In this document: piece by piece, positions 3,264 through 18,361 of the stretch
Layout of the letters: each line of letters starts with the position of its first letter
Position numbering within the stretch: the first letter of the stretch is position 1
DNA from: an uncultured Actinomycetes bacterium
Lineage (GTDB): Bacteria > Actinomycetota > Actinomycetes > S36-B12 > CAIYMF01
Length of the DNA stretch: 32,000 nt
NCBI GenBank assembly: GCA_963843975.1
Contig: CAWJMG010000003.1
Location: forward strand, 570,001-602,000
Reading direction: 5' to 3'
Program-made: the position numbers and the translations under genes
The notes under the pieces: generated by a model
What the model was told of the DNA's origin: nothing
Database searches by the model: none
What the model saw: the letters and a program-made list of their open reading frames with translations, nothing else

Positions 3264-3293
3264 GCTCAAGGCGGGGGTCTGGGGCGCCGATGG
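3264..3293 (+). promoter_or_regulatory. sigma-28 (FliA/WhiG)-like promoter candidate S1: GCTCAAG-N15-GCCGATGG
   Basis: Read directly in the aroE/Roadblock intergenic region, ending 52 nt before ATG 3345. Same motif and spacing as sites at 6213, 8040, 13608 and 18292. Confidence 0.5.
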
Positions 3294-3344
3294 CATGCAC
3301 GGAGGGTCGTCTGACCTCCGTCCTGCGACTCGTCGAGGTGTCCC

Positions 3345-3923
3345 ATGTCCGGCCAGCCATCCTCCACCGGTCGCGCAGCCCGTCTCGACCGTGCCCTCGC
3401 CGACCTGCTCGCGCAGGCCCCTGAGCTCGAGGCGGCTGCGGTCGTGTCCTTCGACGGCCTCGCCATGGCCTCCCGCCTGCCCTCGGGCATGGACGAGGAC
3501 CGCGTGGCGGCGATGAGCGCCGCGCTCCTCAGCCTGGGCGAGAAGGCGGCCCAGGGCCTCGGCCGGGGCGACCTGTCCCAGGTCTACGTCGAGGGCGAGT
3601 CCGGCACCGTCTTCCTGATCTCCGCCGACGACGAGGCCGTCCTGGTCGCCGTCGCCGCAGCCGGCGCCAAGGCGGGCCTCATGCTGTACGAGGTCCGCCG
3701 CTCGGCCGCCGCCGTGGGCGAGGTGCTCCGCGAGGCCGCGCCCGTCGTCGAGGCCCCGAACGTCGACGACCAGGCGCTCGCCGACGCCGAGGCGGCGTAC
3801 GAGGCCTACCGCGCGTCCCAGGCGGTGCCCGCCGCCGCCCCGGTCCCGGAGGTCGTGGCCCCGGCCGCGTCCTGGGACCCGTACGCCACGGCTCCCGTGG
3901 CGTCCGCCCCGTCCTGGTCCTGA
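3345..3923 (+). CDS. Roadblock/LC7 (MglB-like) domain protein with Ala/Pro-rich tail
   Basis: 192 aa. Residues 1-125 (...LEAAAVVSFDGLAMASRLPSGMDEDRVAAMSAALLSLGEKAA...GTVFLISADDEAVLVAVA...) fit the Roadblock/LC7 fold family. The C-terminal third is low complexity. Confidence 0.8.
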   Translation: MSGQPSSTGRAARLDRALADLLAQAPELEAAAVVSFDGLAMASRLPSGMDEDRVAAMSAALLSLGEKAAQGLGRGDLSQVYVEGESGTVFLISADDEAVLVAVAAAGAKAGLMLYEVRRSAAAVGEVLREAAPVVEAPNVDDQALADAEAAYEAYRASQAVPAAAPVPEVVAPAASWDPYATAPVASAPSWS

Positions 3924-3957
3924 CCGTCCCGCCACCACCTGAAGGAGGGGCGCACCC

Positions 3958-5263
3958 GTGAACCTCGAGGGCTCCCTCGACGCGTTCGGACTTCCCGACG
4001 TCCTGACGCTGCTCGCCGCCACCGGCAAGTCCGGTGGCCTGCTGCTGCGCCGTGACACGGACGGGGAGGACGGTCGGGTCGACCGGCTCGAGGGCGCGGT
4101 GTGGTTCCGCGAGGGCCGTGTCTGCGGCGCCACGTCGGACCGCTCCCGCGCGTCCCTCGTACGCCGGGTGGTCGGCTCCGGCGCCGTGGACGACAACGCC
4201 CTGCGCCAGGCCGTCGCCCGTGCGGTGTCCGCCGGCGGGGGAGTGGCCCGTGCGCTGCTCGAGTCCGGTGCCGTCGACCCCGACCTGCTCCGCCAGGCGG
4301 CGGACGACCAGACCGTGGACGCCGTGTTCGACCTGCTCCGCTGGTCCGACGGGGAGTTCGCCTTCGACCCAGCAGCCTCCGACCCGGACGACGTAGGGCT
4401 CGCCATCGAGCACGAGCGGCTGCTGGCCGAGGCCCGGGCCCGGGTCGAGGCATGGGGCGCGCTCGTCGTCGTCATCCCTACGCGCGACGCCGTGCTGACG
4501 GTGCCGACCGTGCTCGCGCAGGACCCCGAGGTCTCCCGGGACGAGTGGGCGCTGCTGTCCCTCGTGGACGGCCACCGCCGCGTGCGCGACCTTGTCGAGC
4601 TGCACCGGGGCCGGCGAGTTCGCCGTCACCACGATCCTGGCGCGCCTCGTCCAGCGCGGCCTCCTGCACGTGAAGGACGCCTCCGCGCCCGACCACGTGA
4701 CGGTCGTCGAGCGCCGACTCGGCATGCTCGCCTCCGTCGAGGGTGCGGCGCCGACCGCCCCGTCCGACGAGCCGGCGCAGCCGGTCCAGGCGGTCGAGGA
4801 GCCCACGGCAGGGCCTGGTGCGCTCGGGATGTCGGCCGCTGCAGCACTCGCCGCAGCCCGTGCGGCACAAGGGCTTCCGCAGCCCGGCGTCCCCGGGTCG
4901 GCAGGCCGTGCACCGCGGCACGAGGTCGTCCCGCCCCGCCCGGAGCCGTTCCTGCCCGGACGGCGCCCCGAGCACCCGGAACCCGCACCCGAGCGCGTTG
5001 CCGGGGCGTCCGCGTTCGCCGCCGCTCCTGCTCCTGCCCACGGGATGCCGTCCGCGCCCGCGGCCCCGCACCCGACCACGTCGTCCGGCTACGCGCCCAT
5101 GGCCGAGAGCTCGGGGTCGGTGGACGGCGCCACGGCGCGCTCGCTCGCCGCGCCCGCGCCGCTGGCGGCCCCCGACCCGCGCCACGACGCCACGATCGAG
5201 CGCGATCCGTCCGTCAACCGCAGCCTGCTGCTGCGCCTCATCGCCGGTGTCAGGGGGCTCTGA
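3958..5263 (+). pseudogene. PATAN/DUF4388 domain protein, reading frame broken by +1 shift near 4612
   Basis: GAAGGAGG RBS precedes GTG 3958. The N-terminus MNLEGSLDAFGLPDVLTLLAATGKSGGLLL is the DUF4388/PATAN signature. Frame 1 loses sense after ...DLVELHRG, and the protein continues sensibly in frame 2 (GEFAVTTILARLVQRGLLHV..., wHTH-like) to TGA 5261-5263. One extra C in CGGGGCCGGC explains the shift. Confidence 0.75.
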
Positions 5264-5838
5264 TGGCAGCGCGCAGGCATCGCCGCCAGGGAGGGCAGGC
5301 CGTCAAGATCGTGGTCACCGGCCCCTTCGCGGCCGGCAAGACCACGCTCATCCGGACGATCAGCGAGATCACCGTGCTCTCGACCGAGCGCGGGATCACG
5401 GACGAGACCCGGAGCCGCAAGGCCGAGACGACGGTGGCCATGGACTTCGGCCGCATCACGATCGATCGCGACCTCGTGCTCTACCTGTTCGGCACGCCCG
5501 GCCAGGAGCGGTTCGACTTCATGTGGGAGATCCTCGGCGAGGGGATGCTCGGCTACGTCCTGCTCGTGGACGCCGCGCGCCCGGAGACCCTGGACGAGGC
5601 GGCCGGGATCCTCGCGGCCTTCCGCCGCATGGCTCACGTGCCGTTCGTCGTCGCGCTGAACCGCACGACCGAGCTCGACCCTCGGGCCGAGGACCGGGTC
5701 CGCGAGGCCCTGGAGCTCTCGCCGTCGACGCCGGTCGTCCCGTGCGACGCGACCGACAAGGACTCCGTGAAGGCCGTCCTGCTCGCCCTGCTGTACAGCG
5801 TGCTGGACGACATCGAGGCCACCGCGGCCCACGCCTAG
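5263..5838 (+). CDS. small Ras-like ATP/GTP-binding protein (MglA/CvnD family)
   Basis: 191 aa. P-loop GPFAAGKTT, switch II FGTPGQERF, and ALNR in place of NKxD. The TGATG overlap with the PATAN gene suggests translational coupling. Confidence 0.85.
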   Translation: MAARRHRRQGGQAVKIVVTGPFAAGKTTLIRTISEITVLSTERGITDETRSRKAETTVAMDFGRITIDRDLVLYLFGTPGQERFDFMWEILGEGMLGYVLLVDAARPETLDEAAGILAAFRRMAHVPFVVALNRTTELDPRAEDRVREALELSPSTPVVPCDATDKDSVKAVLLALLYSVLDDIEATAAHA

Positions 5839-5847
5839 GAGCATCCC

Positions 5848-6183
5848 GTGCGACTGCTGCGCTGGCCCGCCCGCCGACCCGAACCGGTCGGTCGGCACTC
5901 GCGCGTCATGACGGGCGTGAGCATGCCGGGTGCCGCGGCGTCCCTCGTGGCCTCCACCGTGACCGCCGAGAGCGTCGTCGCCGAGTCGGTCGCCGGCGCA
6001 GCCGAGGCGGCTCTCGAGGCGCAGGAGACCGCGGAGCTGTCACGCAGCGTGACCACGGACGCCGGTCGTGCCGTCACCCTCGGCTTCTCCGACGGTGCCA
6101 GCGTCGCCCTGCAGGACGACGACCCGCGCGTGCGCACCTTCCGGGCCGCGGCCGCCGCCCTCCTGGATGCGCCCGGTCGATGA
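5848..6183 (+). CDS. hypothetical protein (111 aa, no recognisable domain)
   Basis: An AGGAG lies 6 nt upstream of GTG 5848. GC3 is high throughout. It is the last gene of the Roadblock-PATAN-GTPase unit. The start could instead be ATG 5908. Confidence 0.45.
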   Translation: MRLLRWPARRPEPVGRHSRVMTGVSMPGAAASLVASTVTAESVVAESVAGAAEAALEAQETAELSRSVTTDAGRAVTLGFSDGASVALQDDDPRVRTFRAAAAALLDAPGR

Positions 6184-6212
6184 CACGGCGTCCCTCGTGG
6201 ACGCCCGTACGG

Positions 6213-6242
6213 GCTACAGACGAGGCGCGGCTGTGCCGAACA
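6213..6242 (+). promoter_or_regulatory. sigma-28-like promoter candidate S2 (diverged): GCTACAG-N15-GCCGAACA
   Basis: Lies in the intergenic region upstream of pilB with the same spacing as S1 and S3. Weaker match in both halves. Confidence 0.3.
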
Positions 6243-6274
6243 GGTGATGAGGGGCCTTCCAGCGGAGGGTCCTG

Positions 6275-7984
6275 ATGGCACCGGCGCACGCCGGGCGGTC
6301 CGATGCGGGAGGGCGCGACGTGAAGCAGCTGGGGGACATCCTCCTCGAGGGCGGTCTGGTCACCCACGACCAGCTCGCGGTCGCCGTCGACGAGCAGAAC
6401 CGGCTCGGCCGCAGCCTGGGCCGTGTCCTCGTCGACCAGGGCGTGCTCACGGAGTCCCAGCTCGTCGCCTCGCTCGCCGCCCAGATCGGCATGCGGTTCG
6501 TCGACCTCAGCGACATCCAGATCGACGGCTCGGCCCTCGGCCGCGTGCCGGGCCACGTCGCCCGGCGCCACACCGCGATCCCGATCGGCTACGAGGAGGG
6601 CAAGCTCCTCGTCGCGATGGCCGACCCGGCCAACGTCTTCGCGATCGACGACATCCGCTCCGCGGCCGGGATCGACGTCAAGCCCGTCGTCGCCACGCGC
6701 AACGACGTGGCCGCGGCCATCGACCGGTTCTACCGCGCCGGCGACGAGCTCAACGACCTCACCTCCGAGCTGGACACGGGGGAGGACGAGGAGGACCTGT
6801 CCAAGGTCAAGGAGATCACCGAGGACGCCCCGATCGTCCGCTACGTGAACCTCCTGATCACCCAGGCCATCCAGGACCGTGCGTCCGACATCCACCTCGA
6901 GCCGACCGAGCACGACCTCCGCGTGCGCTACCGCATCGACGGCGTGCTGCACGAGGTCATGCGCTCTCCTCGGGCGATCCAGTCCGGCGTCATCAGCCGC
7001 CTGAAGATCATGGCCGACATCAACATCGCCGAGCGCCGCATCCCGCAGGACGGCCGACTGTCGGTTGCCGCGCACGGCAAGAAGGTCGACCTCCGCGTCG
7101 CGACCCTCCCCACCGTCTGGGGCGAGAAGGTCGTCATGCGTATCCTCGACAACTCAACGGCGCGAATGGATCTCGCCGATCTCGGCTTCAGCCCGCACAA
7201 CTTCGGCATCTTCGAGAAGTCGTACGTGAAGCCGTACGGGATGATCCTGGTCACCGGTCCGACCGGTTCGGGTAAGTCGACCACGCTGTACGCCACGCTC
7301 AACGTGGTGAACAAGCCCGAGGTCAACATCATCACGGTCGAGGACCCGGTCGAGTACCGCCTCCCCGGCGTCAACCAGGTGCAGGTCAACAACAAGGCCG
7401 GCCTCAACTTCGCCGCAGCCCTGCGCTCGATCCTGCGCTCGGACCCCGACATCGTCCTCATCGGTGAGATCCGCGACCACGAGACGGCGCAGATCGCCGT
7501 CGAGGCCTCGCTCACCGGTCACCTGGTGCTCTCGACCCTGCACACCAACGACGCCCCCAGCGCGATCGTGCGACTGACCGAGATGGGCATCGAGCCCTTC
7601 CTGGTCGGGTCCGCCGTCGACGCGGTGCTCGCCCAGCGTCTCGCCCGCAGGCTCTGCAGCAAGTGCAAGGAGCCGTACGTGCCGGACGCCGAGCAGCTCG
7701 AGCACATCCGGTTCAAGCCGTACCCGGGGGACCCGGAGCCCAACTTCTTCCGGCCGGTGGGCTGCGCGAGCTGCGCCAAGACCGGCTACAAGGGCCGCGT
7801 CGCGATCCACGAGGTCATGGCGATCAGCGACGAGATCGAGCGCCTCACCGTCGAGCGCGCGTCGTCCACGCGGATCATGGCCGTCGCTATCGAGCAGGGC
7901 ATGCGCACGCTCCGCGAGGACGGTCTGCTCAAGGCCTCCCAGGGCATCACCACGATCGACGAGGTCTTCCGCGTCGTCGCCTGA
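6275..7984 (+). CDS. pilB: type IV pilus assembly ATPase PilB (GspE family)
   Basis: 569 aa. N-terminal MshEN/T2SSE_N repeats (LLEGGLVTHDQLAVAVDEQ.., LVDQGVLTESQLVASLAAQ). Walker A GPTGSGKST, the Asp/His boxes, and a tetracysteine motif CSKC...CASC. Both the ATG 6275 and the alternative GTG 6320 start have a GGAGGG-type RBS. Confidence 0.92.
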   Translation: MAPAHAGRSDAGGRDVKQLGDILLEGGLVTHDQLAVAVDEQNRLGRSLGRVLVDQGVLTESQLVASLAAQIGMRFVDLSDIQIDGSALGRVPGHVARRHTAIPIGYEEGKLLVAMADPANVFAIDDIRSAAGIDVKPVVATRNDVAAAIDRFYRAGDELNDLTSELDTGEDEEDLSKVKEITEDAPIVRYVNLLITQAIQDRASDIHLEPTEHDLRVRYRIDGVLHEVMRSPRAIQSGVISRLKIMADINIAERRIPQDGRLSVAAHGKKVDLRVATLPTVWGEKVVMRILDNSTARMDLADLGFSPHNFGIFEKSYVKPYGMILVTGPTGSGKSTTLYATLNVVNKPEVNIITVEDPVEYRLPGVNQVQVNNKAGLNFAAALRSILRSDPDIVLIGEIRDHETAQIAVEASLTGHLVLSTLHTNDAPSAIVRLTEMGIEPFLVGSAVDAVLAQRLARRLCSKCKEPYVPDAEQLEHIRFKPYPGDPEPNFFRPVGCASCAKTGYKGRVAIHEVMAISDEIERLTVERASSTRIMAVAIEQGMRTLREDGLLKASQGITTIDEVFRVVA

Positions 7985-8039
7985 CGGCGCCGCGCACGCT
8001 GTGCAACCCCCGGCTCTGCGCCGAGCGGGTGCCCCGAAG

Positions 8040-8069
8040 GCTCAAGCAAGGCTCTCGGGCGGCCGATGG
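8040..8069 (+). promoter_or_regulatory. sigma-28-like promoter candidate S3: GCTCAAG-N15-GCCGATGG
   Basis: Both half-sites are identical to S1. About 50 nt upstream of the pilT start. Confidence 0.5.
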
Positions 8070-8118
8070 TCAGCAAGGACGCCGGCACGCGAGGTGCCGG
8101 CCCGAACGAGGAGTGGCC

Positions 8119-9498
8119 GTGGAGTCCATGCCGTACGCCGGACAGACGTCCGTGCAGCCGGGCGCCTCGCCGTACCCGTCGGGCGCGATCCCCGAGGCTG
8201 CGGCACCCGTGGCCGCCCCGGTGGGATACCCGGCGCCCGCCCTGGCCACGGCCACGGTTGCGCCCGTCGCGCCGATGCCGATGCCTGCCGCCCCGGCCGC
8301 GGCCCCGCCGGTCCTGTCGGCACCTGAGCCCGCGCCGGCCGGCGTGGTGAACAACCCGCTGAACGACCACGGCACGGGCGTCGCCCAGGTGGTCCCCACG
8401 CGCCAGTCCACCGAGCAGACCATCCGCGAGGACGACTTCAGCCTCGTCGACGCCCTGCTGACCATGCTCGACCGAGGTGCCTCCGACCTCCACCTGACCT
8501 CGGGCGCACGCCCGACCATCCGTGTCAGCGGATCGCTCGTGGGCCTCGAGGAGTTCGAGGTCCTCACGCCTCCGGTGCTGCAGCGCGTCATCTACTCCGT
8601 CCTCACCCAGGGCCAGCGCCTGAAGTTCGAGGAGGAGCTCGAGCTCGACTTCGCGTACTCGCTGCCCGGGCGCGCCCGCTTCCGCGTGAACGTCTACAAG
8701 CAGCGCGACAGCCTCGGCGCGGCCTTCCGCATCATCCCGTTCGAGATCAAGAGCCTCGAGAGCCTCGGCGTCCCGCCGTCGGTCGCGAACTTCGCCAGCC
8801 TGCCGCGCGGCTTCGTGCTCGTCACGGGACCCACCGGCTCGGGCAAGTCGACCACGCTCGCCGCGCTGGTCGATCTGGCGAACCGCACGCGGCACGACCA
8901 CATCATGACCGTCGAGGACCCGATCGAGTTCCTCCACCGGCACAAGAGCTGCATCATCAACCAGCGCGAGGTCGGCGAGGACACCTGGTCGTTCGCCAAC
9001 GCCCTCAAGCACGTGCTGCGCCAGGACCCCGACATCATCCTGGTCGGCGAGATGCGCGACCTCGAGACGATCTCGGTCGCGCTCACCGCCGCCGAGACCG
9101 GTCACCTCGTCTTCGCGACGCTGCACACGCAGGATGCCGCGCAGACCATCGACCGCGTCATCGACGTCTTCCCGCCGCACCAGCAGCAGCAGGTCCGCCA
9201 GCAGCTGGCGATGTCGCTCCAGGGCGTCGTCTGCCAGACGCTGTGCAAGACGGCCGACGGCCACGGTCGCGTCGTCGCGACCGAGGTCCTCGTCGTCACC
9301 CCCGCCGTCCGGAACCTGATCCGCGAGGGCAAGACCCACCAGATCTACTCGGTCATGCAGGCGGGTGCGCAGTTCGGCATGCACACCCTCGACCAGCACC
9401 TCGCCGAGCTCGTCCGCACCCGCCGGGTGACGTACGAGCACGGTGTGGAGAAGTGCCACCACATCGAGGACTTCAACCGGCTCGTCGGCCGGGCCTGA
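8119..9498 (+). CDS. pilT: twitching-motility retraction ATPase PilT with ~100-aa Pro/Ala-rich N-terminal extension
   Basis: The core begins at FSLVDALLTMLDRGASDLHL. Walker A GPTGSGKST, GEMRDLETI and ATLHT motifs are present. GAGGAG sits 5 nt before GTG 8119 (alternative ATG 8128). The upstream part of track ORF 7663.. overlaps pilB and is not used. Confidence 0.9.
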   Translation: MESMPYAGQTSVQPGASPYPSGAIPEAAAPVAAPVGYPAPALATATVAPVAPMPMPAAPAAAPPVLSAPEPAPAGVVNNPLNDHGTGVAQVVPTRQSTEQTIREDDFSLVDALLTMLDRGASDLHLTSGARPTIRVSGSLVGLEEFEVLTPPVLQRVIYSVLTQGQRLKFEEELELDFAYSLPGRARFRVNVYKQRDSLGAAFRIIPFEIKSLESLGVPPSVANFASLPRGFVLVTGPTGSGKSTTLAALVDLANRTRHDHIMTVEDPIEFLHRHKSCIINQREVGEDTWSFANALKHVLRQDPDIILVGEMRDLETISVALTAAETGHLVFATLHTQDAAQTIDRVIDVFPPHQQQQVRQQLAMSLQGVVCQTLCKTADGHGRVVATEVLVVTPAVRNLIREGKTHQIYSVMQAGAQFGMHTLDQHLAELVRTRRVTYEHGVEKCHHIEDFNRLVGRA

Positions 9499-9521
9499 GC
9501 GGCGAGGAGAGGCATCAAGCC

Positions 9522-10757
9522 ATGGCAGCCACAGCGACCTTCCAGTACGCGGTTCGTGACCGCAGCGGCAAGGTAGTCACCGGAAAGATCGAGGCGGACT
9601 CGCCCGCCCAGGTCGCGTCCAAGCTCAAGAGCATGGGCTACGCCCCGCTCAAGATCAGCTCGGTCGAGAAGGGTGGCCTGAAGACCGACATCACCCTGCC
9701 GACCCTGGGCAACAAGGTGAAGCTGAAGGAGATCGCGGTCTTCAGCCGGCAGTTCGCCACGATGATCAACTCGGGCCTGTCGATGCTGCGCTCGCTCTCG
9801 ATCCTCGAGGAGCAGCAGCCGAACAAGAAGTTCGCCACCGTCATCGGCGAGATCCGCGGCGAGGTCGAGAGCGGCTCTGCGCTGTCGACCTCGATGGCCA
9901 AGCACCCCGACATCTTCCAGCCGCTCATGATCAACATGATCAAGGCCGGCGAGGTCGGCGGCTTCCTGGACGCGGTGCTGGTGCAGATCGCCGACAACTA
10001 CGAGGCCGAGGTCAAGCTCCGCGGCAAGGTGAAGTCGGCCATGACCTACCCGGTCGCGGTCCTCGTCATGGCCGTGCTGCTCACGATCGGCATGCTGCTG
10101 TTCGTCGTCCCGACGTTCGCGAAGCTGTTCGAGGACCTCGGCGGCGAGCTGCCGGCGCCGACGCAGATGCTGGTGAACCTCTCCAACTTCCTCAAGGTCG
10201 GGATCATCCCGATCGTGATCCTGTCGATCGTGTGGTTCATCGTCTGGATCCGCATCAAGAACACCGACCGCGTCCGCAACTTCGTCGACCCGATCAAGCT
10301 GAAGGTGCCCATCTTCGGCGGCATGTTCCAGAAGATCGCCCTCGCCCGCTTCTGCCGCAACCTCGGAACGATGCTGCAGTCCGGCGTCCCGATCCTGCAG
10401 TCGCTCGACATCGTCGCGGACACCTCGGGCAACAAGGTCATCACGCATGCTGTGCACGACATCGAGGAGAGCGTGCGCCGGGGCGAGAGTCTCACCCAGC
10501 CGCTGTCCCAGCACGCGGTCTTCCCGGCCATGGTCGTGCAGATGCTGGCGGTCGGCGAGGACACCGGTGCCCTGGACTCGATGCTCGCGAAGATCGCCGA
10601 CTTCTACGACGCCGAGGTCGAGGCGACCACCGAGCAGATGACCGCGCTCATCGAGCCGCTCATGATCGCCGTGCTGGGCGGCATCGTCGGGTCGATGATC
10701 ATCGCCCTGTACATGCCCATCTTCAAGATCTTCGACCTCATCGGCGGCAGCAAGTAG
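9522..10757 (+). CDS. pilC: type IV pilus platform protein PilC (GspF family)
   Basis: 411 aa starting at ATG 9522 after a GAGGAGAGG RBS. Two T2SSF repeats (FSRQFATMINSGLSMLRSL.., FCRNLGTMLQSGVPILQSL..) and three TM segments. Confidence 0.92.
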   Translation: MAATATFQYAVRDRSGKVVTGKIEADSPAQVASKLKSMGYAPLKISSVEKGGLKTDITLPTLGNKVKLKEIAVFSRQFATMINSGLSMLRSLSILEEQQPNKKFATVIGEIRGEVESGSALSTSMAKHPDIFQPLMINMIKAGEVGGFLDAVLVQIADNYEAEVKLRGKVKSAMTYPVAVLVMAVLLTIGMLLFVVPTFAKLFEDLGGELPAPTQMLVNLSNFLKVGIIPIVILSIVWFIVWIRIKNTDRVRNFVDPIKLKVPIFGGMFQKIALARFCRNLGTMLQSGVPILQSLDIVADTSGNKVITHAVHDIEESVRRGESLTQPLSQHAVFPAMVVQMLAVGEDTGALDSMLAKIADFYDAEVEATTEQMTALIEPLMIAVLGGIVGSMIIALYMPIFKIFDLIGGSK

Positions 10758-10779
10758 CCGCAGGGGTGATCAGCACGGT

Positions 10780-10803: not shown

Positions 10804-10919
10804 TCCTGCGTCCACGGGCCGGTGGCGCTGCTCGGGATTGATCCCCCGACCGGGTGATGTGGGCGGAAAGTTCTCGGGAACCTTAAGGACCGGGGTCCGG
10901 AGCGACCGACACCGTCTCT

Positions 10920-11057
10920 GTCATGGAAATCCATGACCGCCGGACACCAGAACGGGCACACCCACCGCGAGGTGGGGCCGCAGAGCCAGGGGACCCACGT
11001 GGTCAGCCCAGCAGCCTCGGTCAGGCCGGACGGCGGTCGCTTCGCAGGAGGAACACA
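10920..11057 (+). promoter_or_regulatory. structured 5' leader of pilin 1; candidate c-di-GMP-I (GEMM-I)-like riboswitch
   Basis: P1 is GACCGCCG (10935-42) paired with CGGCGGTC (11031-38). GGGCACA follows at 10954-60. P2 is CCCACC-GCGA-GGTGGG at 10961-76 (GNRA loop). GCCGCAGAGCC follows at 10977-87. P3 is GGGGACC-cacgt-GGTCagCCC at 10989-11009. The RBS AGGAGG is at 11046-51. Copy 2 shows compensatory changes. Confidence 0.45.
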
Positions 11058-11480: not shown

Positions 11481-11494
11481 CCCCAGCACCCCGG

Positions 11495-11524
11495 GACGGG
11501 GCGGACCGACCGGTCCGCCCCGTC
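11495..11524 (+). terminator. hairpin after pilin 1
   Basis: GACGGGGCGGAC-cgaccg-GTCCGCCCCGTC, a 12-bp perfect stem. Confidence 0.55.
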
Positions 11525-11569
11525 TCGCTGCGCCGAGAGGGTGACGCTCCGTGATCGTGGACGTCGAAG

Positions 11570-11598
11570 GCTCAAGCCCGCCTCACAGGCGTCGAAGA
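11570..11598 (+). promoter_or_regulatory. sigma-28-like promoter candidate S4: GCTCAAG-N14-GTCGAAGA (weak -10)
   Basis: The -35-like half is exact, the -10-like half matches GCCGATAA at 5/8. It ends 7 nt before the leader palindrome at 11606. Confidence 0.3.
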
Positions 11599-11605
11599 AG
11601 CATCT

Positions 11606-11747
11606 GTCATGGAAATCCATGACCGCCAGAGACCAGAACGGGCACACCCGCCGCGAGGCGGGGTCGCAAAGCCAGGGGACCCTCCGGGTCGGCCCAGCTA
11701 CCTCGGTCCATCCGGTCGACGGCGGTCGTCCTTCAGGAGGAACACCA
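11606..11747 (+). promoter_or_regulatory. structured 5' leader of pilin 2; candidate c-di-GMP-I (GEMM-I)-like riboswitch
   Basis: Same architecture as 10920-11057. P2 is CCCGCC-GCGA-GGCGGG (an A:U pair replaced by G:C). The core segment GTCGCAAAGCC is at 11663-73. P1 is GACCGCC paired with GGCGGTC at 11621-27 and 11721-27. Confidence 0.45.
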
Positions 11748-12170
11748 ATGTTCTCTCGTATCCGCACGTCGATCTCGGACAAGGACTCGGGCTTCACGCT
11801 CATCGAGCTCCTCGTCGTCATGATCATCATCGGCATCCTTGCCGCCATCGCGATCCCGACCTTCCTCAACCAGCGCAAGAACGGCTACCGCTCGGCCCTC
11901 AAGGCCGACCTGAAGAACGCCGCCACCGCGCTCGAGTCGGCCGCTGTCGACAAGCAGGGTGACTTCACCCTCGGTGGCACCCTGGCCGCGAACACGGTCA
12001 TCCCCGCTGCCGGTGTCGAGTTCACCGCCACCAGCGGCAACACCGTGACCGTCAAGTCCGTCACGGCGACGACCTACTGCATCGAGGCCACCAACGCCTC
12101 GCTCGGTGCGGCTGAGCCGTGGAAGTTCAACAAGGCGACCGGTGCGCCGGTTGCGGGCGCCTGCCCGTGA
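11748..12170 (+). CDS. pilA: type IV major pilin paralog 2
   Basis: 140 aa. The N-terminal 60 aa are nearly identical to paralog 1, with the same G|FTLIELLVV motif. Carries the TYC...AGAC Cys pair. Confidence 0.92.
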   Translation: MFSRIRTSISDKDSGFTLIELLVVMIIIGILAAIAIPTFLNQRKNGYRSALKADLKNAATALESAAVDKQGDFTLGGTLAANTVIPAAGVEFTATSGNTVTVKSVTATTYCIEATNASLGAAEPWKFNKATGAPVAGACP

Positions 12171-12206
12171 TGAACTGACCGACGGCCTGGCCGTCGGAGC
12201 ACGAAG

Positions 12207-12236
12207 CGAGGGGCGGGCCTGCGGGCCCGCCCCTCG
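12207..12236 (+). terminator. hairpin after pilin 2 (preceded by a second small hairpin 12179-12197)
   Basis: CGAGGGGCGGGCC-tgcg-GGCCCGCCCCTCG, a 13-bp perfect stem, followed by GCGCGTTTCGCC. Confidence 0.55.
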
Positions 12237-12301
12237 CGCGTTTCGCCTAGGCCCTCCGGGTGAGATCCAGGCGTGAGGCAGACCCGTACGGGTCACACGC
12301 T

Positions 12302-12330
12302 CTCAAGCGTCCGGATGTCGGGCCGATCCC
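12302..12330 (+). promoter_or_regulatory. sigma-28-like promoter candidate S5: TCTCAAG-N14-GCCGATCC
   Basis: Intergenic, upstream of pilin 3. The -10-like half matches GCCGATAA at 6/8. Confidence 0.4.
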
Positions 12331-12467
12331 CGAAGGGTCATCGAATTTCATGTCCGTCGCGATCGACGCCCACCCAGCACCACCTTCATCCGGCTGGGCG
12401 CCCGGTGGGTCACCCGTGCGCGGGAGCCTGCTGGTCGAGCGTCGACGGTCGTCCTAGGAGGAACGTC

Positions 12468-12887
12468 ATGTTCTCTCGTATCCGCACGTCGATCGAGGAG
12501 GAGGACTCGGGCTTCACGCTCATCGAGCTCCTCGTCGTCATGATCATCATCGGCATCCTCGCCGCGATCGCCATCCCGACCTTCCTCAACCAGAGGAAGA
12601 ACGGCCACCGCTCGGCACTCAAGAGCGACCTGAAGAACGCCGCCACCGCACTCGAGTCGGCGGCGGTCGACAAGTTCGGCGACTTCACCCTCGGCGGCAC
12701 CCTGGCGGCCAACTCGATCCTGCCAGCCGCAGGAGTCGAGTTCGTGGCCACCACCGGGGACACCATCAGGGTGATCTCGTCCAGCTCGACCACGTACTGC
12801 CTCCAGGGCGTCAACGACGTCCTGACAGCGGCCGAGACCTGGAAGTTCGACAAGGCCGTCGGCGCCCCGGTCGCCGGCACCTGCTGA
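12468..12887 (+). CDS. pilA: type IV major pilin paralog 3
   Basis: 139 aa. MFSRIRTSIEEEDSG|FTLIELLVV... with TYC...AGTC. TAGGAGG RBS. Confidence 0.92.
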   Translation: MFSRIRTSIEEEDSGFTLIELLVVMIIIGILAAIAIPTFLNQRKNGHRSALKSDLKNAATALESAAVDKFGDFTLGGTLAANSILPAAGVEFVATTGDTIRVISSSSTTYCLQGVNDVLTAAETWKFDKAVGAPVAGTC

Positions 12888-12901
12888 ACGCACCAGCACC
12901 T

Positions 12902-12949
12902 CGAAGGGCCCGGCTGGGCGACGGAGACGTCGACCGGTCGGGCCCTTCG
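12902..12949 (+). terminator. compound hairpin after pilin 3
   Basis: The outer stem is CGAAGGGCCCG/CGGGCCCTTCG (11 bp). It encloses an inner hairpin CGACG-gaga-CGTCG. Confidence 0.4.
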
Positions 12950-13013
12950 CGCTGCCGGGGCAGATGTCATCCGACTGGCGGACCCTGAACGGCTCAGCAG
13001 AGACGAACCTCCG

Positions 13014-13042
13014 GCTCAAGTCCCGCTCCACAGCACCGATAA
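13014..13042 (+). promoter_or_regulatory. sigma-28-like promoter candidate S6: GCTCAAG-N14-ACCGATAA
   Basis: Best -10 match in the window (7/8 to GCCGATAA). About 50 nt upstream of pilin 4 ATG 13096. Confidence 0.5.
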
Positions 13043-13095
13043 CAGGACCTGAGAGAGCTGCTCGGTGCGGCTCGACACCGAAAGGATCCGCCGCC

Positions 13096-13515
13096 ATGCT
13101 CACGCGACTTCGCACCTCGATCCACGACAAGGACTCGGGCTTCACCCTCATCGAGCTCCTCGTCGTCATGATCATCATCGGCATCCTTGCCGCGATCGCG
13201 ATCCCGACCTTCCTCAACCAGCGCAAGAACGGCTACCGCTCGTCGCTGAAGGCCGACCTGAAGAACGCTGCCACCGGCCTCGAGTCCGCTGCTGTCGACA
13301 AGCAGGGCGACTTCACCCTCGGCGGCACCCTCGCCGCGAACACCGTCCTCCCGGCCGGCACGGTCGAGTTCACGCCCACCACGGGCAACACCGTCACCGT
13401 GAAGACCGTCACGGCCACCACGTACTGCATCGAGGCCAGCAACGCCTCGCTCGGCGCGGGCGAGCCGTGGAAGTTCGACAAGGCCACCGGTGCTCCCATC
13501 GCGGGTGCCTGCTGA
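13096..13515 (+). CDS. pilA: type IV major pilin paralog 4
   Basis: 139 aa. MLTRLRTSIHDKDSG|FTLIELLVV... with TYC...AGAC. The short leader has no riboswitch-like structure. Confidence 0.92.
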   Translation: MLTRLRTSIHDKDSGFTLIELLVVMIIIGILAAIAIPTFLNQRKNGYRSSLKADLKNAATGLESAAVDKQGDFTLGGTLAANTVLPAGTVEFTPTTGNTVTVKTVTATTYCIEASNASLGAGEPWKFDKATGAPIAGAC

Positions 13516-13530
13516 CCCGACTGAACCATC

Positions 13531-13570
13531 GCGACGAGGTGGCGCCCCGCACGGGGCGTCACCTCGTCGC
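13531..13570 (+). terminator. long hairpin after pilin 4
   Basis: GCGACGAGGTGGCGCCCC-gcac-GGGGCGTCACCTCGTCGC, an 18-bp stem with one G:U pair. Confidence 0.55.
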
Positions 13571-13607
13571 CGTTCAGCCCGCCGAGCGGGTTAACGGGCC
13601 GCCGAAG

Positions 13608-13637
13608 GCTCAAGCCCCGCTCACGATGGGCCGAGAA
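13608..13637 (+). promoter_or_regulatory. sigma-28-like promoter candidate S7: GCTCAAG-N15-GCCGAGAA
   Basis: Intergenic, about 34 nt upstream of the minor-pilin operon start at 13671. Confidence 0.45.
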
Positions 13638-13670
13638 CCTGGGTGGACCACTATCGGAAGGGACCGGCTC

Positions 13671-14972
13671 ATGCTCACGAGCATGCGAGACCTGCGCGTA
13701 CGACTGCGCGACGACGACGCGGGCTTCACCCTCGTCGAGCTCCTGGTCTCCCTCGTGGTCGCCAGCGTGATCCTGAGCGGTGTCGCCTACGGCGTCGCCC
13801 AGTCGCTCTGGAGCAGCCGGGACTCCAAGGACCGAGAGGTCGCGGCCAACCTCGCGGCTGGCGCGATCGACCAGGCCCGCGCCACGACCGACTACGTCGG
13901 ACTGTCGGGGAGCACCACGACCCAGACCGTGAACGGCGAGACGTTCACCGTGCTCCGGACCGTCACCGCCTACTCGAGCCTCGGCACCGCGTCGCCCTGC
14001 GACGGCACCGCCGGCAGCTTCATCAAGTACAAGAAGATCTCCATCCGCGTGACGTGGCCACGGATGAAGCGGGGGACGAGCTCCGTGCGCGCCGAGACGC
14101 TCCTCGCGCCCGGTGCCAGCAGCTTCGACCCCACCAAGGGCAACATCGGCGCCAAGGTGCTGAACGCGCTCGGCCAGCCCGTCGAGGGCATCGCGGTGCA
14201 GGTCACCGGTGCGGCGACCAACCGCACCAACTACACCGACGACCAGGGATGCGCCTTCTTCGAGGGACTCACGCCCGGGTCCTTCACGGTGGCAGCGAAC
14301 GCCTCCGGGTACGTGACCTCGGCCGGCGTCTTCAACCCGTCGCAGCCCGCGTCGGTCGCCACCGGAGCGACGACGCCGATCGTGTTCGACTACGACAAGG
14401 TCGGCACGCTGAGCGCCTCCCTGGGCGACGCCAGCTACCCGGCACCGGCCAACGTCCCGCTTGCGATCGGCCAGACGGCGCTCCTGCCCGACGGCACAGT
14501 GTCGAACATGGGCACCGGCACCCCGCGCTCGCTCACGAACCTGTTCCCCTTCGCCAGCGGCTACACGATGTGGGCGGGCTCCTGCCAGGACGCCGATCCG
14601 CAGGGTGCCGACAGCTCCGGCTCCTACTACCCCAGTGCGACCCGTGGCCCTGCGGTCCAGGCCGACACGAGCGGCTCCCCGACCACGGTGAACGTCGAGA
14701 TGGCCAGGCTCCGCGTCGCTGTCATCGAGGACGCCACGGGGAACGGGATCTCGGGCGCGTCGGTGCTCGCCACCCACGCCGGCACGGCCTTCTGCGACTT
14801 CCCGGGCGAGGCCTTCACGCTCCCGGCCACCGGAGGCGGAGGAGACGTGAAGGTGTCGATGCCTTGGGGCACGTGGGACTTCACGGTCCCCGGACGCACG
14901 GTGATCGCACCCGTCACACCGACCTTCTCGCCCACGACCTCGGAGATCTACGTGGAGGTGAGGGTCGCGTGA
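13671..14972 (+). CDS. large minor pilin (prepilin N-terminal methylation domain + two carboxypeptidase-regulatory-like beta domains)
   Basis: 433 aa. The motif ...RDDDAG|FTLVELLVSLVVASVIL is a prepilin signal. Later segments (GIAVQVTGAATNRTNYTDDQGCAFFEGLTPGSFTV and ISGASVLATHAG...) resemble CarboxypepD_reg/Ig-like folds. The alternative start is ATG 13683. Confidence 0.8.
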   Translation: MLTSMRDLRVRLRDDDAGFTLVELLVSLVVASVILSGVAYGVAQSLWSSRDSKDREVAANLAAGAIDQARATTDYVGLSGSTTTQTVNGETFTVLRTVTAYSSLGTASPCDGTAGSFIKYKKISIRVTWPRMKRGTSSVRAETLLAPGASSFDPTKGNIGAKVLNALGQPVEGIAVQVTGAATNRTNYTDDQGCAFFEGLTPGSFTVAANASGYVTSAGVFNPSQPASVATGATTPIVFDYDKVGTLSASLGDASYPAPANVPLAIGQTALLPDGTVSNMGTGTPRSLTNLFPFASGYTMWAGSCQDADPQGADSSGSYYPSATRGPAVQADTSGSPTTVNVEMARLRVAVIEDATGNGISGASVLATHAGTAFCDFPGEAFTLPATGGGGDVKVSMPWGTWDFTVPGRTVIAPVTPTFSPTTSEIYVEVRVA

Positions 14973-15637
14973 GCACCACCCGGCTCAGGGGGATCATCTC
15001 CCGCCTCCGCGCGGCGCGCGGCGACCAGGGCCTGACCCTGGCCGAGCTCATGGTGACGATGGTCCTGATGGGCGTCGTCGGCACCATCATGATCTCGACG
15101 GTCATCTCGGTGACCAACACCGTCACGCACAACCAGGCGAACGCGGACAGCCTCGACACCGCGCGCATCGGCATGAACCGCCTGACCATGAACATCCGGT
15201 CGGGCATGTCGATCCAGCGCAGCGGCCTCGCCGACGCGCCGGCCATGGCCGAGATCGCGCCCAACAAGGTGACGGTCTACGCCAGCCTCGGCGCCGTCCC
15301 GACGAAGATCACGTACTCCATCAACGCCAACCGCGAGCTGGTGGAGAACTGGTACGTCGGCAACGCGGCGAGCAACCCGTACTGGACCTTCTCGAACACG
15401 GCCCGCACGACGGTGATCGCCCGCAAGATCCCGACGACCGCCGCACCTCTGTTCACGTTCCTGGACTCCAACGGGGCGCCCATCACCAACCAGACGTCCA
15501 CCAACCTCAACGACCTCGCCCTCATCCGTAGCGTGGTCATCGCGCTCACGGTCGACGTCGACCCCGCCCGCGGCGGGGGTCCGGTCACGGTCAGCAACAC
15601 GGTCGTGTTGCCCAACATGGGGATCGCGAAGCGATGA
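14969..15637 (+). CDS. minor pilin, PilW-like
   Basis: 222 aa. Prepilin signal ARGDQG|LTLAELMVTMVLMGVVG with E+5. GTGA overlap with the upstream gene. Confidence 0.8.
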   Translation: MSTTRLRGIISRLRAARGDQGLTLAELMVTMVLMGVVGTIMISTVISVTNTVTHNQANADSLDTARIGMNRLTMNIRSGMSIQRSGLADAPAMAEIAPNKVTVYASLGAVPTKITYSINANRELVENWYVGNAASNPYWTFSNTARTTVIARKIPTTAAPLFTFLDSNGAPITNQTSTNLNDLALIRSVVIALTVDVDPARGGGPVTVSNTVVLPNMGIAKR

Positions 15638-17349
15638 ACGGAATCTTCCTCGGCCTGCGCAAGCGTCTGGATGCCGCACAGGGCGACAGTGGCATGGCGC
15701 TCATCACCGTGCTCGGCATCGGCACGATGCTCACGCTCATCATGTTCGCGAGCGCCGGCTTCGCGGTGAACCAGCTCAAGCAGGTGCGCGGCGACCAGGA
15801 CTGGAACGGCGCGCTCGCGGCGGCCCAGGCCGGTGTCGACGAGTACATCTCCCGACTGAACTCCGACGGCACCTATTGGCGCTACGGCAACCCCGCGAGC
15901 CCTTACTCGACCGGCTCGACCATGACGCTGCCCACCGGCGCGTCCGCGAACGCCGCCTTCACCGGCTGGGTGGGGACGCCGGGAACCACGACGCGCTCGT
16001 ACTTCCGGTACGACGTGAACAACTCGCTGTTCACCTCGCAGGGCATCCTGAAGCTCCGTGCCTCGGGCAAGGTCGGCAAGGAGATCCGCACGGTCGACGT
16101 CCAGATCCGCCGCCGCGGATTCATCGACTACCTCTACTTCACCGACTACGACACCAAGGACCCGGCCGCGTACGAGACGGTCGTCGGCGACGACTACAAC
16201 CCGACGCAGGCGCAGGCCAACTGCGCGAAGCACGTCTACGAGGGCCGCGTCGACGCCATCAACGGCGTGTCGACGGGCTGCACCACGATCCGCTTCATCG
16301 GATCGGGCGGCGTCAACGACGTCATCCAGGGCCCGCTGCACTCGAACGACGCGTTCTACACCTGCGGCTCCCCGCAGTTCCAGGGCGCGACGTCCACGTC
16401 GTGGAACGACCCGGCCAACGTCCGCTACAAGAGGGACACGGGCTGCTCGGGCAACCCCATCTTCTCGGTCGCCGGTGACCCGAAGTACGCGTCACCGCTG
16501 ACGATGCCGCCGAGCAACAACGCGATCCGCAAGGAGGTCGACCCGGTCTACTCGAACCCGGTGGGCTGCCTCTACGTGGGTCCGACCTCGATCGTCCTCA
16601 ACGCCGCGGGCACGATGAACGTCAACAGCCCGTGGACGAAGAACGGCGGTCCGGCCTGGTGCGGCGTGGGCAACAACCTGCCGCTACCGGCCAACGGCGT
16701 CATCTACGTCCAGTCCGTGCCGGCGGTCGCCGACGCGTACACCCGTGCGACCCCGACCACCGCCTGCATCAACGCCGGCGCGGGAAACCCGCTCGGCTAC
16801 CCGCAGACGAACGACATGACGGTGTACGGATGCCGTGCCGGTGACGTGTTCCTCGAGGGCAGCCTCAAGGGCCAGCTCACCATCGCCGCGGAGAACAACA
16901 TCGTGGCGACCTGGCACATCGACTACGCCGGCGGCTCGGCCGGCACGGACCTGCTGGGCCTCGTGGCGAACAACTACATCGAGGTCTACCACCCCGTCCG
17001 CTGCACCAGCACGAGCGGCGGCCAGTGCACGGCGGGCACCAACCTGGTTCCGACCGGCAAGGCGACAGTCTTCACGAACACCCGCATCAACGCCGCGCTG
17101 CTGTCGGTGAACCACTCGTTCCGCGTCCAGAACTACCGCTGGGGTACCACCCTCGGGACGCTGAACATCACCGGTGCGATCGCCCAGCGCTACCGCGGCA
17201 TCGTCGGTTCCGGCTCCGCCGGCTTCGCGAAGAACTACGTCTACGACGCCCGCCTGCGCTACGCGTCGCCGCCGAAGTTCCTCGACCCGATCCAGTCCGC
17301 GTACCAGCCGTCCCTCTGGTCCGAGCCGCAGCCGGCCTACACCAGCTGA
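15634..17349 (+). CDS. large PilX-like minor pilin / putative tip protein (571 aa)
   Basis: The N-terminus ...GDSGMALITVLGIGTMLTLIMF is PilX_N-like and lacks E+5. The large C-terminal region is Gly/Asn/Thr-rich and repeat-like (..LKGQLTIAAENNIVATWHIDYAG..LVANNYIEVYHPV..), suggestive of a beta-helix. ATGA overlap with the upstream gene. Confidence 0.75.
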   Translation: MNGIFLGLRKRLDAAQGDSGMALITVLGIGTMLTLIMFASAGFAVNQLKQVRGDQDWNGALAAAQAGVDEYISRLNSDGTYWRYGNPASPYSTGSTMTLPTGASANAAFTGWVGTPGTTTRSYFRYDVNNSLFTSQGILKLRASGKVGKEIRTVDVQIRRRGFIDYLYFTDYDTKDPAAYETVVGDDYNPTQAQANCAKHVYEGRVDAINGVSTGCTTIRFIGSGGVNDVIQGPLHSNDAFYTCGSPQFQGATSTSWNDPANVRYKRDTGCSGNPIFSVAGDPKYASPLTMPPSNNAIRKEVDPVYSNPVGCLYVGPTSIVLNAAGTMNVNSPWTKNGGPAWCGVGNNLPLPANGVIYVQSVPAVADAYTRATPTTACINAGAGNPLGYPQTNDMTVYGCRAGDVFLEGSLKGQLTIAAENNIVATWHIDYAGGSAGTDLLGLVANNYIEVYHPVRCTSTSGGQCTAGTNLVPTGKATVFTNTRINAALLSVNHSFRVQNYRWGTTLGTLNITGAIAQRYRGIVGSGSAGFAKNYVYDARLRYASPPKFLDPIQSAYQPSLWSEPQPAYTS

Positions 17350-17355
17350 CGCGAC

Positions 17356-17383
17356 GCGCGGCGGGGCTCACGCCCCGCCGCGC
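17356..17383 (+). terminator. hairpin after minor-pilin operon
   Basis: GCGCGGCGGGGC-tcac-GCCCCGCCGCGC, a 12-bp perfect stem, 7 nt after the stop. Confidence 0.55.
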
Positions 17384-17405
17384 GTGCGCTCGTTAGGGTC
17401 ACGAC

Positions 17406-18212
17406 GTGCTGACTGGATCCACCGAGACCGACACCGCCCTGCTCACGGCCGTGTGCGGCTTCCTGGGGCTGTTCATCGGCTCCTTCCTCAACGTGGTGAT
17501 CTACCGCGTCCCCGCAGGCCTCTCGGTGGTGTCCCCGCGCTCGCGCTGCCCCCGCTGCGAGACCGAGATCAAGGCGTACGACAACATCCCGGTCGTCTCG
17601 TGGCTGGTCCTGCGCGGGAAGTGCCGCAGCTGCGGTGAGCCCATCTCGGTGCGCTACCCCCTCGTGGAGCTCGCCACCGGCGTCCTGTTCGCGCTCACGG
17701 CGTGGTGGCTTGGGCCGGTCTGGGAGCTGCCCGCGTTCCTGTACCTCGCCGCGATCGCCGTGGCCCTGTCGATGATCGACTTCGACGTCAAGCGGCTCCC
17801 CGATGCGATCGTGCTGCCGTCGTACGGCGTGGCGCTCGTGCTCCTTCTGGTGCCCTCCTTCCTCGACTCCCGCTGGGACGACCTGCTGCGCGGCGTGCTC
17901 GCGGGGCTGGCGCTGTTCGCCTTCTACTTCCTCCTGCTCATCGTCTACCCGGCGGGCATGGGCTTCGGCGACGTCAAGCTCGGGGGAGTGATCGGCCTCT
18001 ATCTCGGCTGGGTGTCCTGGGGGCTCGTCGTCGTCGGCACCTTCGCCGGGTTCGTCATCGGCGCCGTCGTGGGGCTCGTCCTGATCGTTACCCGCCGGGG
18101 CGGCCGCAAGTCCAAGGTGCCGTTCGGGCCCTTCATGTTCATGGGCGTGTACGTCGCCTTCGCCGTCGGCCAGCCGATCGTGGACTGGTACGTCGGCAGC
18201 CTCGGGCTGTAG
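17406..18212 (+). CDS. pilD: prepilin peptidase / N-methyltransferase (A24 family) PilD
   Basis: 268 aa. N-terminal CPRC...CRSC zinc motif, polytopic TM profile, and catalytic-Asp motif GMGFGDVKLGG. TAGGGT lies 6 nt upstream of GTG 17406, a leaderless-type arrangement. Confidence 0.9.
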   Translation: MLTGSTETDTALLTAVCGFLGLFIGSFLNVVIYRVPAGLSVVSPRSRCPRCETEIKAYDNIPVVSWLVLRGKCRSCGEPISVRYPLVELATGVLFALTAWWLGPVWELPAFLYLAAIAVALSMIDFDVKRLPDAIVLPSYGVALVLLLVPSFLDSRWDDLLRGVLAGLALFAFYFLLLIVYPAGMGFGDVKLGGVIGLYLGWVSWGLVVVGTFAGFVIGAVVGLVLIVTRRGGRKSKVPFGPFMFMGVYVAFAVGQPIVDWYVGSLGL

Positions 18213-18291
18213 CCCGGAGGGTCCGCGCGGGCCGCCGTCACCCGTCCGGCGCCATGCCGCTCACGGCACTGGACCTTTTCCCTCCCGGTTT

Positions 18292-18321
18292 GCTCAAGGC
18301 GAGCCCCACCACCGCCGAAAC
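18292..18321 (+). promoter_or_regulatory. sigma-28-like promoter candidate S8: GCTCAAG-N15-GCCGAAAC
   Basis: Intergenic, about 40 nt upstream of the pilM start. Confidence 0.45.
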
Positions 18322-18361
18322 CCAGGGGGAAGACCACCGGAGCGGTGGTGACAGGTGAGAG

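Follow-up and report, generated by a model that had tools for sequence, protein, structure and literature searches.

Probable sigma-28 promoters and type IV pili

That type IV pilus (T4P) genes can be controlled by sigma factors of the sigma-28 family, the FliA/WhiG clade, is already published. Schumacher et al. (2021; PMC8325347) described WhiG-type promoters inside the T4P cluster of Rubrobacter, with transcription starts mapped, and state that the pilus and flagellar genes of Actinoplanes are both transcribed by WhiG-like sigma factors. Denis et al. (2026; PMC12871210) predict WhiG sites in the T4P clusters of Cellulomonadaceae, Cryptosporangiaceae, Sanguibacteraceae, Rubrobacteraceae and Jonesiaceae. 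Here, we describe a recurrent two-box motif, CTCAAG-N14-15-GCCGA, in a stretch of 32,000 nucleotides from an uncultured Actinomycetes bacterium (lineage S36-B12; CAIYMF01; assembly GCA_963843975.1, contig CAWJMG010000003.1, positions 570,001 to 602,000 of the forward strand), which we call the window. The motif stands ahead of the transcription units of a T4P cluster at nine sites, and we consider it very probable, from the letters of the DNA and their conservation, that these are promoters for a sigma-28-family factor (WhiG/FliA clade, Actinomycetota). What the window adds is a new instance in a lineage outside the earlier studies and no new principle.

Actinoplanes missouriensis provides one point of comparison. 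Denis et al. (2026; PMC12871210) summarize two reported consensus sequences, CTCA-N16-17-GCCGAACT for the FliA/WhiG1 type of this organism and T(A/C)AA-N16-GCCGATAA for the WhiG2 type. As summarized there, the WhiG1-type form shares with the window motif the -35 core CTCA, the spacing and the -10 core GCCGA, and its targets include the pil cluster, as here; the A. missouriensis motif also drives flagellar and developmental genes. Set against that summary, the window differs in having a longer and strongly conserved -35 box, (G)CTCAAG, in an uncultured host lineage. It differs also in that two of its pilin transcripts carry cyclic di-GMP (c-di-GMP) riboswitches.

Rubrobacter radiotolerans provides another, the (RsiG)2-(c-di-GMP)2-WhiG switch, with TAAA / GCCGATAA promoters and mapped transcription starts in its T4P cluster. 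Sigma-28-type promoters split the T4P cluster in both cases, into 3 units there and 9 here, and both have a link to c-di-GMP, which runs through an anti-sigma factor in Rubrobacter and, as far as the window shows, through a riboswitch here. The -35 box is CTAAAG there, whereas it is CTCAAG here. A Rubrobacter metagenome-assembled genome (MAG) among our comparison loci (L061) has the canonical CTAAAG...TCCGATAA before pilB, in the same hexamer register as the window motif.

The FliA promoters of Escherichia coli and the SigD promoters of Bacillus subtilis, TAAAG-N14-GCCGATAA, have the same two-box layout. The E. coli form is also written TAAAGTTT-N11-GCCGATAA, which is equal to TAAAG-N14-GCCGATAA. 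The window's T(C)AAG-N14/15-GCCGA(T/A) is one base away. In contrast to these classical promoters, the sites here serve pilus rather than flagellar genes, the -35 box has C fixed in place of A and the -10 box is only loosely conserved in its last three bases. A different kind of relative is found in Clostridioides difficile, where the leader of the major pilin gene pilA1 contains a class II c-di-GMP riboswitch. In both cases a monoderm bacterium has a c-di-GMP aptamer in the 5' leader of a major pilin gene, but the class is different; the aptamer here is class I (GEMM-I, RF01051 / RF03167, clan CL00126).

The nine motif sites

The sites had been listed in a sequence-only reading of the window, made by a model without database searches. 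All nine are present on the + strand with the boxes and spacers it gave; its one error of position was the pilin 3 site, put at 12302, where CTCAAG begins, while TCTCAAG starts at 12301. The first promoter-like site, GCTCAAG-N15-GCCGATGG at 3264 to 3293, lies 51 nt before the ATG (3345) of a Roadblock gene. The second, GCTACAG-N15-GCCGAACA at 6213 to 6242, has a degenerate -35 box and lies 32 nt before the ATG of pilB. GCTCAAG-N15-GCCGATGG occurs again at 8040 to 8069, 49 nt before the GTG of pilT, where it would drive pilT-pilC.

Four sites precede the four pilin genes. That of pilin 1, CCTTAAG-N17-ACCGACAC at 10881 to 10912, is a weak site ahead of the leader; between its -10 box and the conserved hairpin of the leader there are 7 nt, the same distance as for pilin 2, and it is the spacing to the -35 box that is off. 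GCTCAAG-N14-GTCGAAGA (11570 to 11598) lies ahead of the pilin 2 leader and TCTCAAG-N14-GCCGATCC (12301 to 12329) ahead of the pilin 3 leader, whose gene starts at ATG 12469. GCTCAAG-N14-ACCGATAA (13014 to 13042) is 54 nt before the pilin 4 ATG (13097). Two sites remain, GCTCAAG-N15-GCCGAGAA (13608 to 13637), 33 nt before a minor-pilin operon (13671 to 17349) that probably also includes the prepilin peptidase gene pilD (17406 to 18212), and GCTCAAG-N15-GCCGAAAC (18292 to 18321), 40 nt before the GTG of pilM, which would drive pilM-pilN-pilO-orfY. The spacer after the -35 hexamer is thus N14 or N15 at eight sites and N17 at pilin 1, and the distance from the -10 box to the start codon is 32 to 54 nt wherever there is no long leader. 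It had been claimed that every T4P unit is covered. The nine units do each have a site, but the -35 boxes of pilin 1 (CTTAAG, with N17) and pilB (CTACAG) are weaker than the rest. The Roadblock, pilB, pilT and pilM sites have no flanking similarity to one another; the spacers of the pilin 2, pilin 4 and minor-pilin sites are alike, and the four pilin promoters belong to paralogous tandem units.

The motif is far more frequent than expected. The exact form GCTCAAG-N13-16-GCCGA has 4 matches in the window against 0.06 expected, and 0 of 100 shuffles reach this number. CTCAAG-N16-17-CGA has 8 matches, all on the + strand, against 0.54 expected (again 0 of 100 shuffles). Seven of these are intergenic and ahead of T4P transcription units; the eighth, at 11220, falls inside pilin 1 and has CT instead of GC before CGA. 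The independently published rule of Denis et al., CTCA-N16-17-GCCGA, in which one of the first two bases of the -10 box may differ, gives 8 matches on the + strand, 7 of them in non-coding DNA and all 7 within the T4P cluster, and 3 on the - strand, all in coding DNA. Non-coding DNA makes up 2,989 bases of the window (9.3%), and a binomial estimate for at least 7 of 8 matches in 9.3% of the sequence is about 4e-7. The housekeeping intergenic regions, reported earlier to be without the motif, are indeed so, with 0 matches at aroC, efp, the transporter, pdtaR and the ATP-binding cassette (ABC) gene.

The word GCTCAAG is common by itself, with 17 occurrences in the window against 2.8 expected. 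Ten of the 11 copies inside genes are in-frame Leu-Lys codons (G CTC AAG). None of the 11 has CGA at the correct spacing, which extends to all of them what had been claimed for those checked earlier, and a codon artefact was rejected on this ground.

Agreement with the sigma-28 consensus

Our yardstick for a sigma-28 promoter was a -35 box of T(A/C)AA(G) or CTCA, a -10 box of GCCGA(TAA) in which CGA is invariant, and a spacer of N16 after T(A/C)AA, equal to N16-17 after CTCA. Seven of the window sites satisfy this published two-box rule. The spacing agrees with it at the eight sites with N14 or N15 after CTCAAG or its variant, as it does in 16 aligned genomes, described below, and so do the targets, all sites lying ahead of T4P units and being kept before the same genes in relatives. 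The window motif also fits the classical flagellar consensus, which is TAAA at -35 and GCCGATAA at -10 (PMC8325347). It had been thought that the -35 half is one base off the sigma-28 consensus, as it is off the classical CTAAAG. CTCAAG is the published actinobacterial WhiG/FliA form, with no deviation.

CTCAAG-N15-GCCGA in fact holds both published forms at once, CTCA + AG + N15 being N17 and TCAA + G + N15 being N16. The published WhiG1 and WhiG2 queries are therefore two registers of one hexamer, CTCAAG. This explains the remark of Denis et al. that the WhiG1 and WhiG2 motifs 'overlapped extensively', and it means that promoter sequence cannot separate WhiG1 from WhiG2.

A sigma-70 reading was also considered and rejected, 0 sigma-70-like promoters having been found between 3000 and 22000.

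We propose the following mechanism. RNA polymerase carrying a sigma factor of the WhiG/FliA clade, whose gene would lie in another part of the genome, would recognize the nine sites, region 4 of the sigma factor touching the -35 box (G)CT(C/A)AAG and region 2 touching the -10 box GCCGA(T/A)nn, 14 to 15 nt downstream. We infer that transcription starts roughly 6 to 8 nt past the -10 box. The nine co-regulated units would be the Roadblock/small-GTPase genes, pilB, pilT-pilC, the four pilins (each a monocistronic unit bounded by terminator-like hairpins), the minor pilins with the prepilin peptidase, and pilMNO. A single sigma factor would in this way switch the whole pilus on or off, and the c-di-GMP-I riboswitch in the leaders of pilins 1 and 2 would serve as a second, post-initiation checkpoint.

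Conservation in related loci

The paralogous pilin promoters make the counts within the window overstate independence, and it is the comparison across genomes that carries the argument. The comparison set consisted of 80 loci around PilT homologues, numbered with the prefix L, and motif counts were made over 81 related T4P loci. The nearest relative is MAG GCA_964269125.1 (L001), with about 86% DNA identity, and the nearest PilT, 88% identical, is in a MAG labeled Candidatus Nanopelagicales. Further relatives are labeled Kineococcus, Kineosporiaceae, Frankiales, Cellulomonas, Solirubrobacterales and Rubrobacter. The strict motif, CTCAAG-N14-15-GCCGA, occurs 66 times on the gene strand of these loci against once on the opposite strand, and the relaxed motif, CT(A/C)AAG-N14-15-(G/A)(C/T)CGA, 101 times against 6. 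At least one relaxed match is found in 54 of the 81 loci; of the 48 loci that span 15 kb or more, 38 have one or more. A much looser seed, CTCA-N16-17-NNCGA, has 322 matches on the + strand and 139 on the - strand, mostly coding background, and AG directly follows CTCA in 129 of those on the + strand.

The genes served are the same ones. In relatives the motif precedes pilT (20 loci), Roadblock genes, pilB, pilins, minor pilins and pilM, and most of the matches that were at first unassigned precede pilin-like genes with a G-F-T/S-L-x-E signature. It stands ahead of Roadblock genes in L003, L005, L008, L015, L017 and L042 as well as in the window, and before minor-pilin genes in many loci. The pilM site is kept in L001, L006, L008, L011, L015, L016, L019, L024, L076 and L078. 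In Cellulomonas cellasea (L016), the motif occurs before pilT, a pilin gene and pilM.

The clearest footprint comes from the spacer between pilB and pilT, the alignment between pilD and pilM being too gappy for a clean -10 box. In the 16 genomes aligned, the invariant or nearly invariant intergenic columns are CT(C/A)AAG and (G)CCGATG, which form the main conserved island. The 15 nt between the two boxes are without gaps and variable in sequence, and a conserved ribosome-binding site and GTG follow downstream. Two fixed boxes at a fixed distance, with free sequence between them, are the signature of a sigma-factor promoter.

The departures from the motif are instructive too. The weak site before pilB is conserved as a weak site, with CTTCAG in L003, L005 and L022, CTCCAG in L014 and CTCAAG in L006 and L010, and relatives keep GCCGA and the spacing there despite a degenerate -35 box. 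The classical hexamer appears in place of CTCAAG in several loci, as CTAAAG...(G/A/C)CCGATA(A/G) before the riboswitch leader of a pilin gene in L060, L062, L076 and L078, and at one promoter of L015, where four others have CTCAAG. The sequence-only reading had attributed the motif to a sigma-28 (FliA/WhiG) factor, and this attribution is supported by the consensus match, the conservation, the interchange with CTAAAG and published precedent.

Two observations concern loci of the Solirubrobacterales type. CTCAAG...(G/T)(C/T)CGA is found before a conserved membrane-protein gene (L068:944, L072:809, L076:629 and L079:512), whose product has an N-terminus reading RKAINENPVVQ... This gene stands apart from the T4P genes, some 6.5 kb upstream of aroE, and may also belong to the regulon. 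In the same four loci (L068, L072, L076 and L079), the pilB promoter lies within the 3' end of aroE.

The window is a clean nine-promoter example of a complete T4P machine, including a Roadblock/small-GTPase module of the MglB/MglA kind, that would be under one sigma-28-type factor. It extends the picture from Actinoplanes and Rubrobacter, in that T4P clusters of many uncultured Actinomycetota are marked by promoters of this type, the labels of motif-bearing relatives including Kineosporiaceae, Cellulomonas, Solirubrobacterales and Nanopelagicales. For such clusters, the motif could serve as a guide when operons and transcription starts are annotated.

Weighing the alternatives

A number of points weigh against a sigma-28 assignment. 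A tblastn search with E. coli FliA found no sigma-28 gene in the window, nor in the 80 related loci to a distance of 10 kb from pilT. WhiG homologues are, according to the literature, widespread in Actinomycetota, including Cellulomonas, Rubrobacter and Thermoleophilia, and it is from relatives and from this literature that we infer the existence of such a factor in the source organism. The pilB and pilin 1 sites are weak and carry only the -10 part of the sigma-28 pattern. A flagellum-linked WhiG1 and a WhiG2 controlled by c-di-GMP and RsiG would look the same from the motif. The nine sites are also not nine independent events, for the pilin promoters are paralogous and the count within the window overstates independence.

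The alternative that survives best is a promoter for some other alternative sigma factor, either a pilus-dedicated paralogue outside the sigma-28 clade or a factor of the extracytoplasmic function (ECF) or SigF/SigB type. In its favor, the search with FliA found no sigma gene in the window or in the related loci, and sigma paralogues do specialize, A. missouriensis having four WhiG/FliA paralogues with regulons that overlap only partly. The boxes and the spacing, however, both match sigma-28 consensus sequences, and the canonical CTAAAG...GCCGATAA substitutes at equivalent sites. The known consensus sequences of ECF and SigF/SigB factors in actinobacteria (GGAAC...CGT or GTT; GTTT...GGGTA) are unlike the window motif. 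A dedicated paralogue within the WhiG/FliA clade would still count as sigma-28-type. We regard a sigma factor from outside the clade as unlikely.

Alternatively, a transcription factor (for instance a response regulator or PilR-like activator) might bind the motif, which would then not itself be a promoter. Operators also recur ahead of co-regulated genes. Yet the two boxes differ from each other, have no dyad or direct-repeat symmetry and keep a fixed spacing of 14 to 15 nt, and the motif points towards the downstream gene with the 101-to-6 asymmetry described above. Its distance to the start codon is that of a promoter, or else it immediately precedes a riboswitch leader, and no other promoter-like element was found in the spacers, where the two boxes are the main conserved island. 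We think an operator very unlikely.

The weakest alternative, that the recurrence is an artefact of pilin tandem duplication and of codon-driven GCTCAAG abundance, draws on the frequency of GCTCAAG as Leu-Lys codons in coding DNA, on the homologous leaders of pilins 1 to 4 as tandem paralogues and on the similar spacers of the pilin 2, pilin 4 and minor-pilin sites, but it is scarcely credible, as there is no flanking similarity among the sites of Roadblock, pilB, pilT and pilM, the in-gene words have no CGA partner and the motif keeps its equivalent position in genomes whose spacers cannot otherwise be aligned. The cross-genome footprint and the strand asymmetry of 66 to 1 effectively refute an origin by repeats or duplication.

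c-di-GMP riboswitch aptamers in the pilin leaders

Two of the pilin leaders on the + strand contain a predicted riboswitch aptamer for c-di-GMP. The aptamer in the pilin 2 leader (11626 to 11711; ATG 11749) is of the c-di-GMP-I class, Rfam RF01051 giving it 47.1 bits at 11631 to 11705, above the gathering score of 35. That in the pilin 1 leader (10940 to 11025; ATG 11059) is of c-di-GMP-I type by RF03167 and by a covariance model of our own. RF03167 gives it 37.9 bits (10947 to 11020; E 1.2e-6), below the gathering score of 59, and our own model 86 bits, this copy having been one of its five training sequences. Aptamers at the same place in L006, L008 and L015 score above gathering.

The five-copy model finds 15 aptamers, all on the gene strand and all between pilC and the first pilin gene. 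The relatives that have them are L003, L006, L008, L012, L015, L017, L048, L053, L054, L060, L062, L076 and L078. For 13 of the 15 aptamers, a CT(C/A)AAG-N14-15-NNCGA site ends 14 to 33 nt upstream. Because the aptamer must lie in the transcribed leader, the promoter must sit where the motif is. Across the 15 aptamers, 12 of 25 pairs show compensatory changes in both partners and pairing holds in 90.8% of cells, values reached by 0 of 500 shuffles (slid controls gave 2 to 6 pairs), in an alignment that was fitted to the covariance model and is biased towards structure for that reason.

The aptamer ends only about 40 nt from the ATG and no U-tract terminator follows it, from which control by the riboswitch is probably translational. 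In the predicted fold of the pilin 2 leader (z-score -1.3), neither a clear terminator nor masking of the ribosome-binding site was seen. The leaders of the other two paralogues are different. In the pilin 3 leader (12336 to 12468), the hairpin at the 5' end (GTCATCGAATTTCATG) and the ribosome-binding segment at the 3' end are retained from the riboswitch leaders, with the aptamer unrecognizable between them, and the pilin 4 leader (13049 to 13096) is only about 50 nt long. This suggests that the pilin paralogues differ in their sensitivity to c-di-GMP.

We put forward, tentatively and as a possibility rather than a probability, that a sigma-28-type promoter and then a c-di-GMP-I riboswitch, in series, gate the major pilin gene and that the paralogues allow a choice of pilin dependent on c-di-GMP. 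The sequence elements of this series are seen in the lineage of the window and in a dozen or more further Actinomycetota, most of them uncultured. The literature searched describes neither this architecture nor c-di-GMP riboswitches ahead of pilin genes in actinobacteria, and Denis et al. (2026; PMC12871210) make no mention of riboswitches; the serial arrangement on pilin genes is the least-described element of what we report. It points to c-di-GMP as a co-signal for the pilus. If the sigma factor were an RsiG-controlled WhiG2, c-di-GMP would act at initiation and again on the leader RNA of the same gene.

A third action of c-di-GMP might be added through the N-terminal domain of PilB. Residues about 17 to 65 of the window's PilB read KQLGDILLEGGLVTHDQLAVAVDEQ-NRLGR-SLGRVLVDQGVLTE. 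We take this to resemble the tandem 24-residue c-di-GMP-binding motif of MshEN, (R)LGxx(L/V/I)(L/V/I)xxG(L/V/I)(L/V/I)xxxxLxxxLxxQ. Pfam places an MshEN domain at residues 72 to 157. This N-terminus may give c-di-GMP another way of acting on the pilus.

Gene content of the locus

The window has a G+C content of 71% and an actinobacterial gene order. By Pfam, alaS, ruvX, mltG and aroE are followed by the pilus cluster and then by aroC, shikimate-pathway genes, a peptidase, efp and others. The T4P cluster is 18 kb long, lies wholly on the + strand and is flanked by aroE (2406 to 3227) and aroC (Pfam); the part served by the motif sites runs from 3345 to 21589. Its genes were called with Pfam and with an analysis of the frame from third-codon-position GC.

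At the 5' end of the cluster are the Roadblock gene (3345 to 3923), a DUF4388 gene (from 3958), an unassigned open reading frame (4592 to 5263), a small GTPase of Ras/Arf-like or Ras/MglA-like kind (about 5275 to 5838) and orfX (5848 to 6183). A single open reading frame from 3958 to 5838 is an open-frame artefact, third-position GC indicating at least three genes there. The Roadblock/LC7, DUF4388, open reading frame and GTPase operon (3345 to 6183) resembles the MglB/MglA polarity module of Myxococcus and also parts of actinobacterial 'conservons'.

Next come pilB (6275 to 7984, ATG 6275), pilT (8119 to 9498, GTG 8119) and pilC (about 9522 to 10757), then the tandem paralogues pilin 1 (11059 to 11480), pilin 2 (11749 to 12170), pilin 3 (12469 to 12887) and pilin 4 (13097 to 13515). 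Three minor-pilin-like genes (13671 to 14972, about 15002 to 15637 and 15634 to 17349) and pilD are followed by pilM (18362 to 19417, GTG 18362), pilN (19414 to 20214), pilO (20207 to 20917) and orfY (20939 to 21589). Scans of the window with the published rule and with CTCAAG-N16-17-CGA found no site of its own before pilC, and the 56-nt gap ahead of pilD is likewise without one, so that pilT-pilC and the minor pilins with pilD are probably operons.

Strong G+C-rich hairpins without U-tracts follow pilC and pilins 1 to 3 on the + strand, at 10781 to 10802, 11492 to 11525, 12209 to 12236 and 12889 to 12961. They are probably terminators of the actinobacterial style, which would make each pilin gene a separate unit; a consensus terminator scan needs a run of T and overlooks such hairpins. 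Outside the cluster, on the - strand, a tRNA gene (28683 to 28756; Rfam 57 bits) lies between a major facilitator superfamily (MFS) transporter gene and an ANTAR response-regulator gene.

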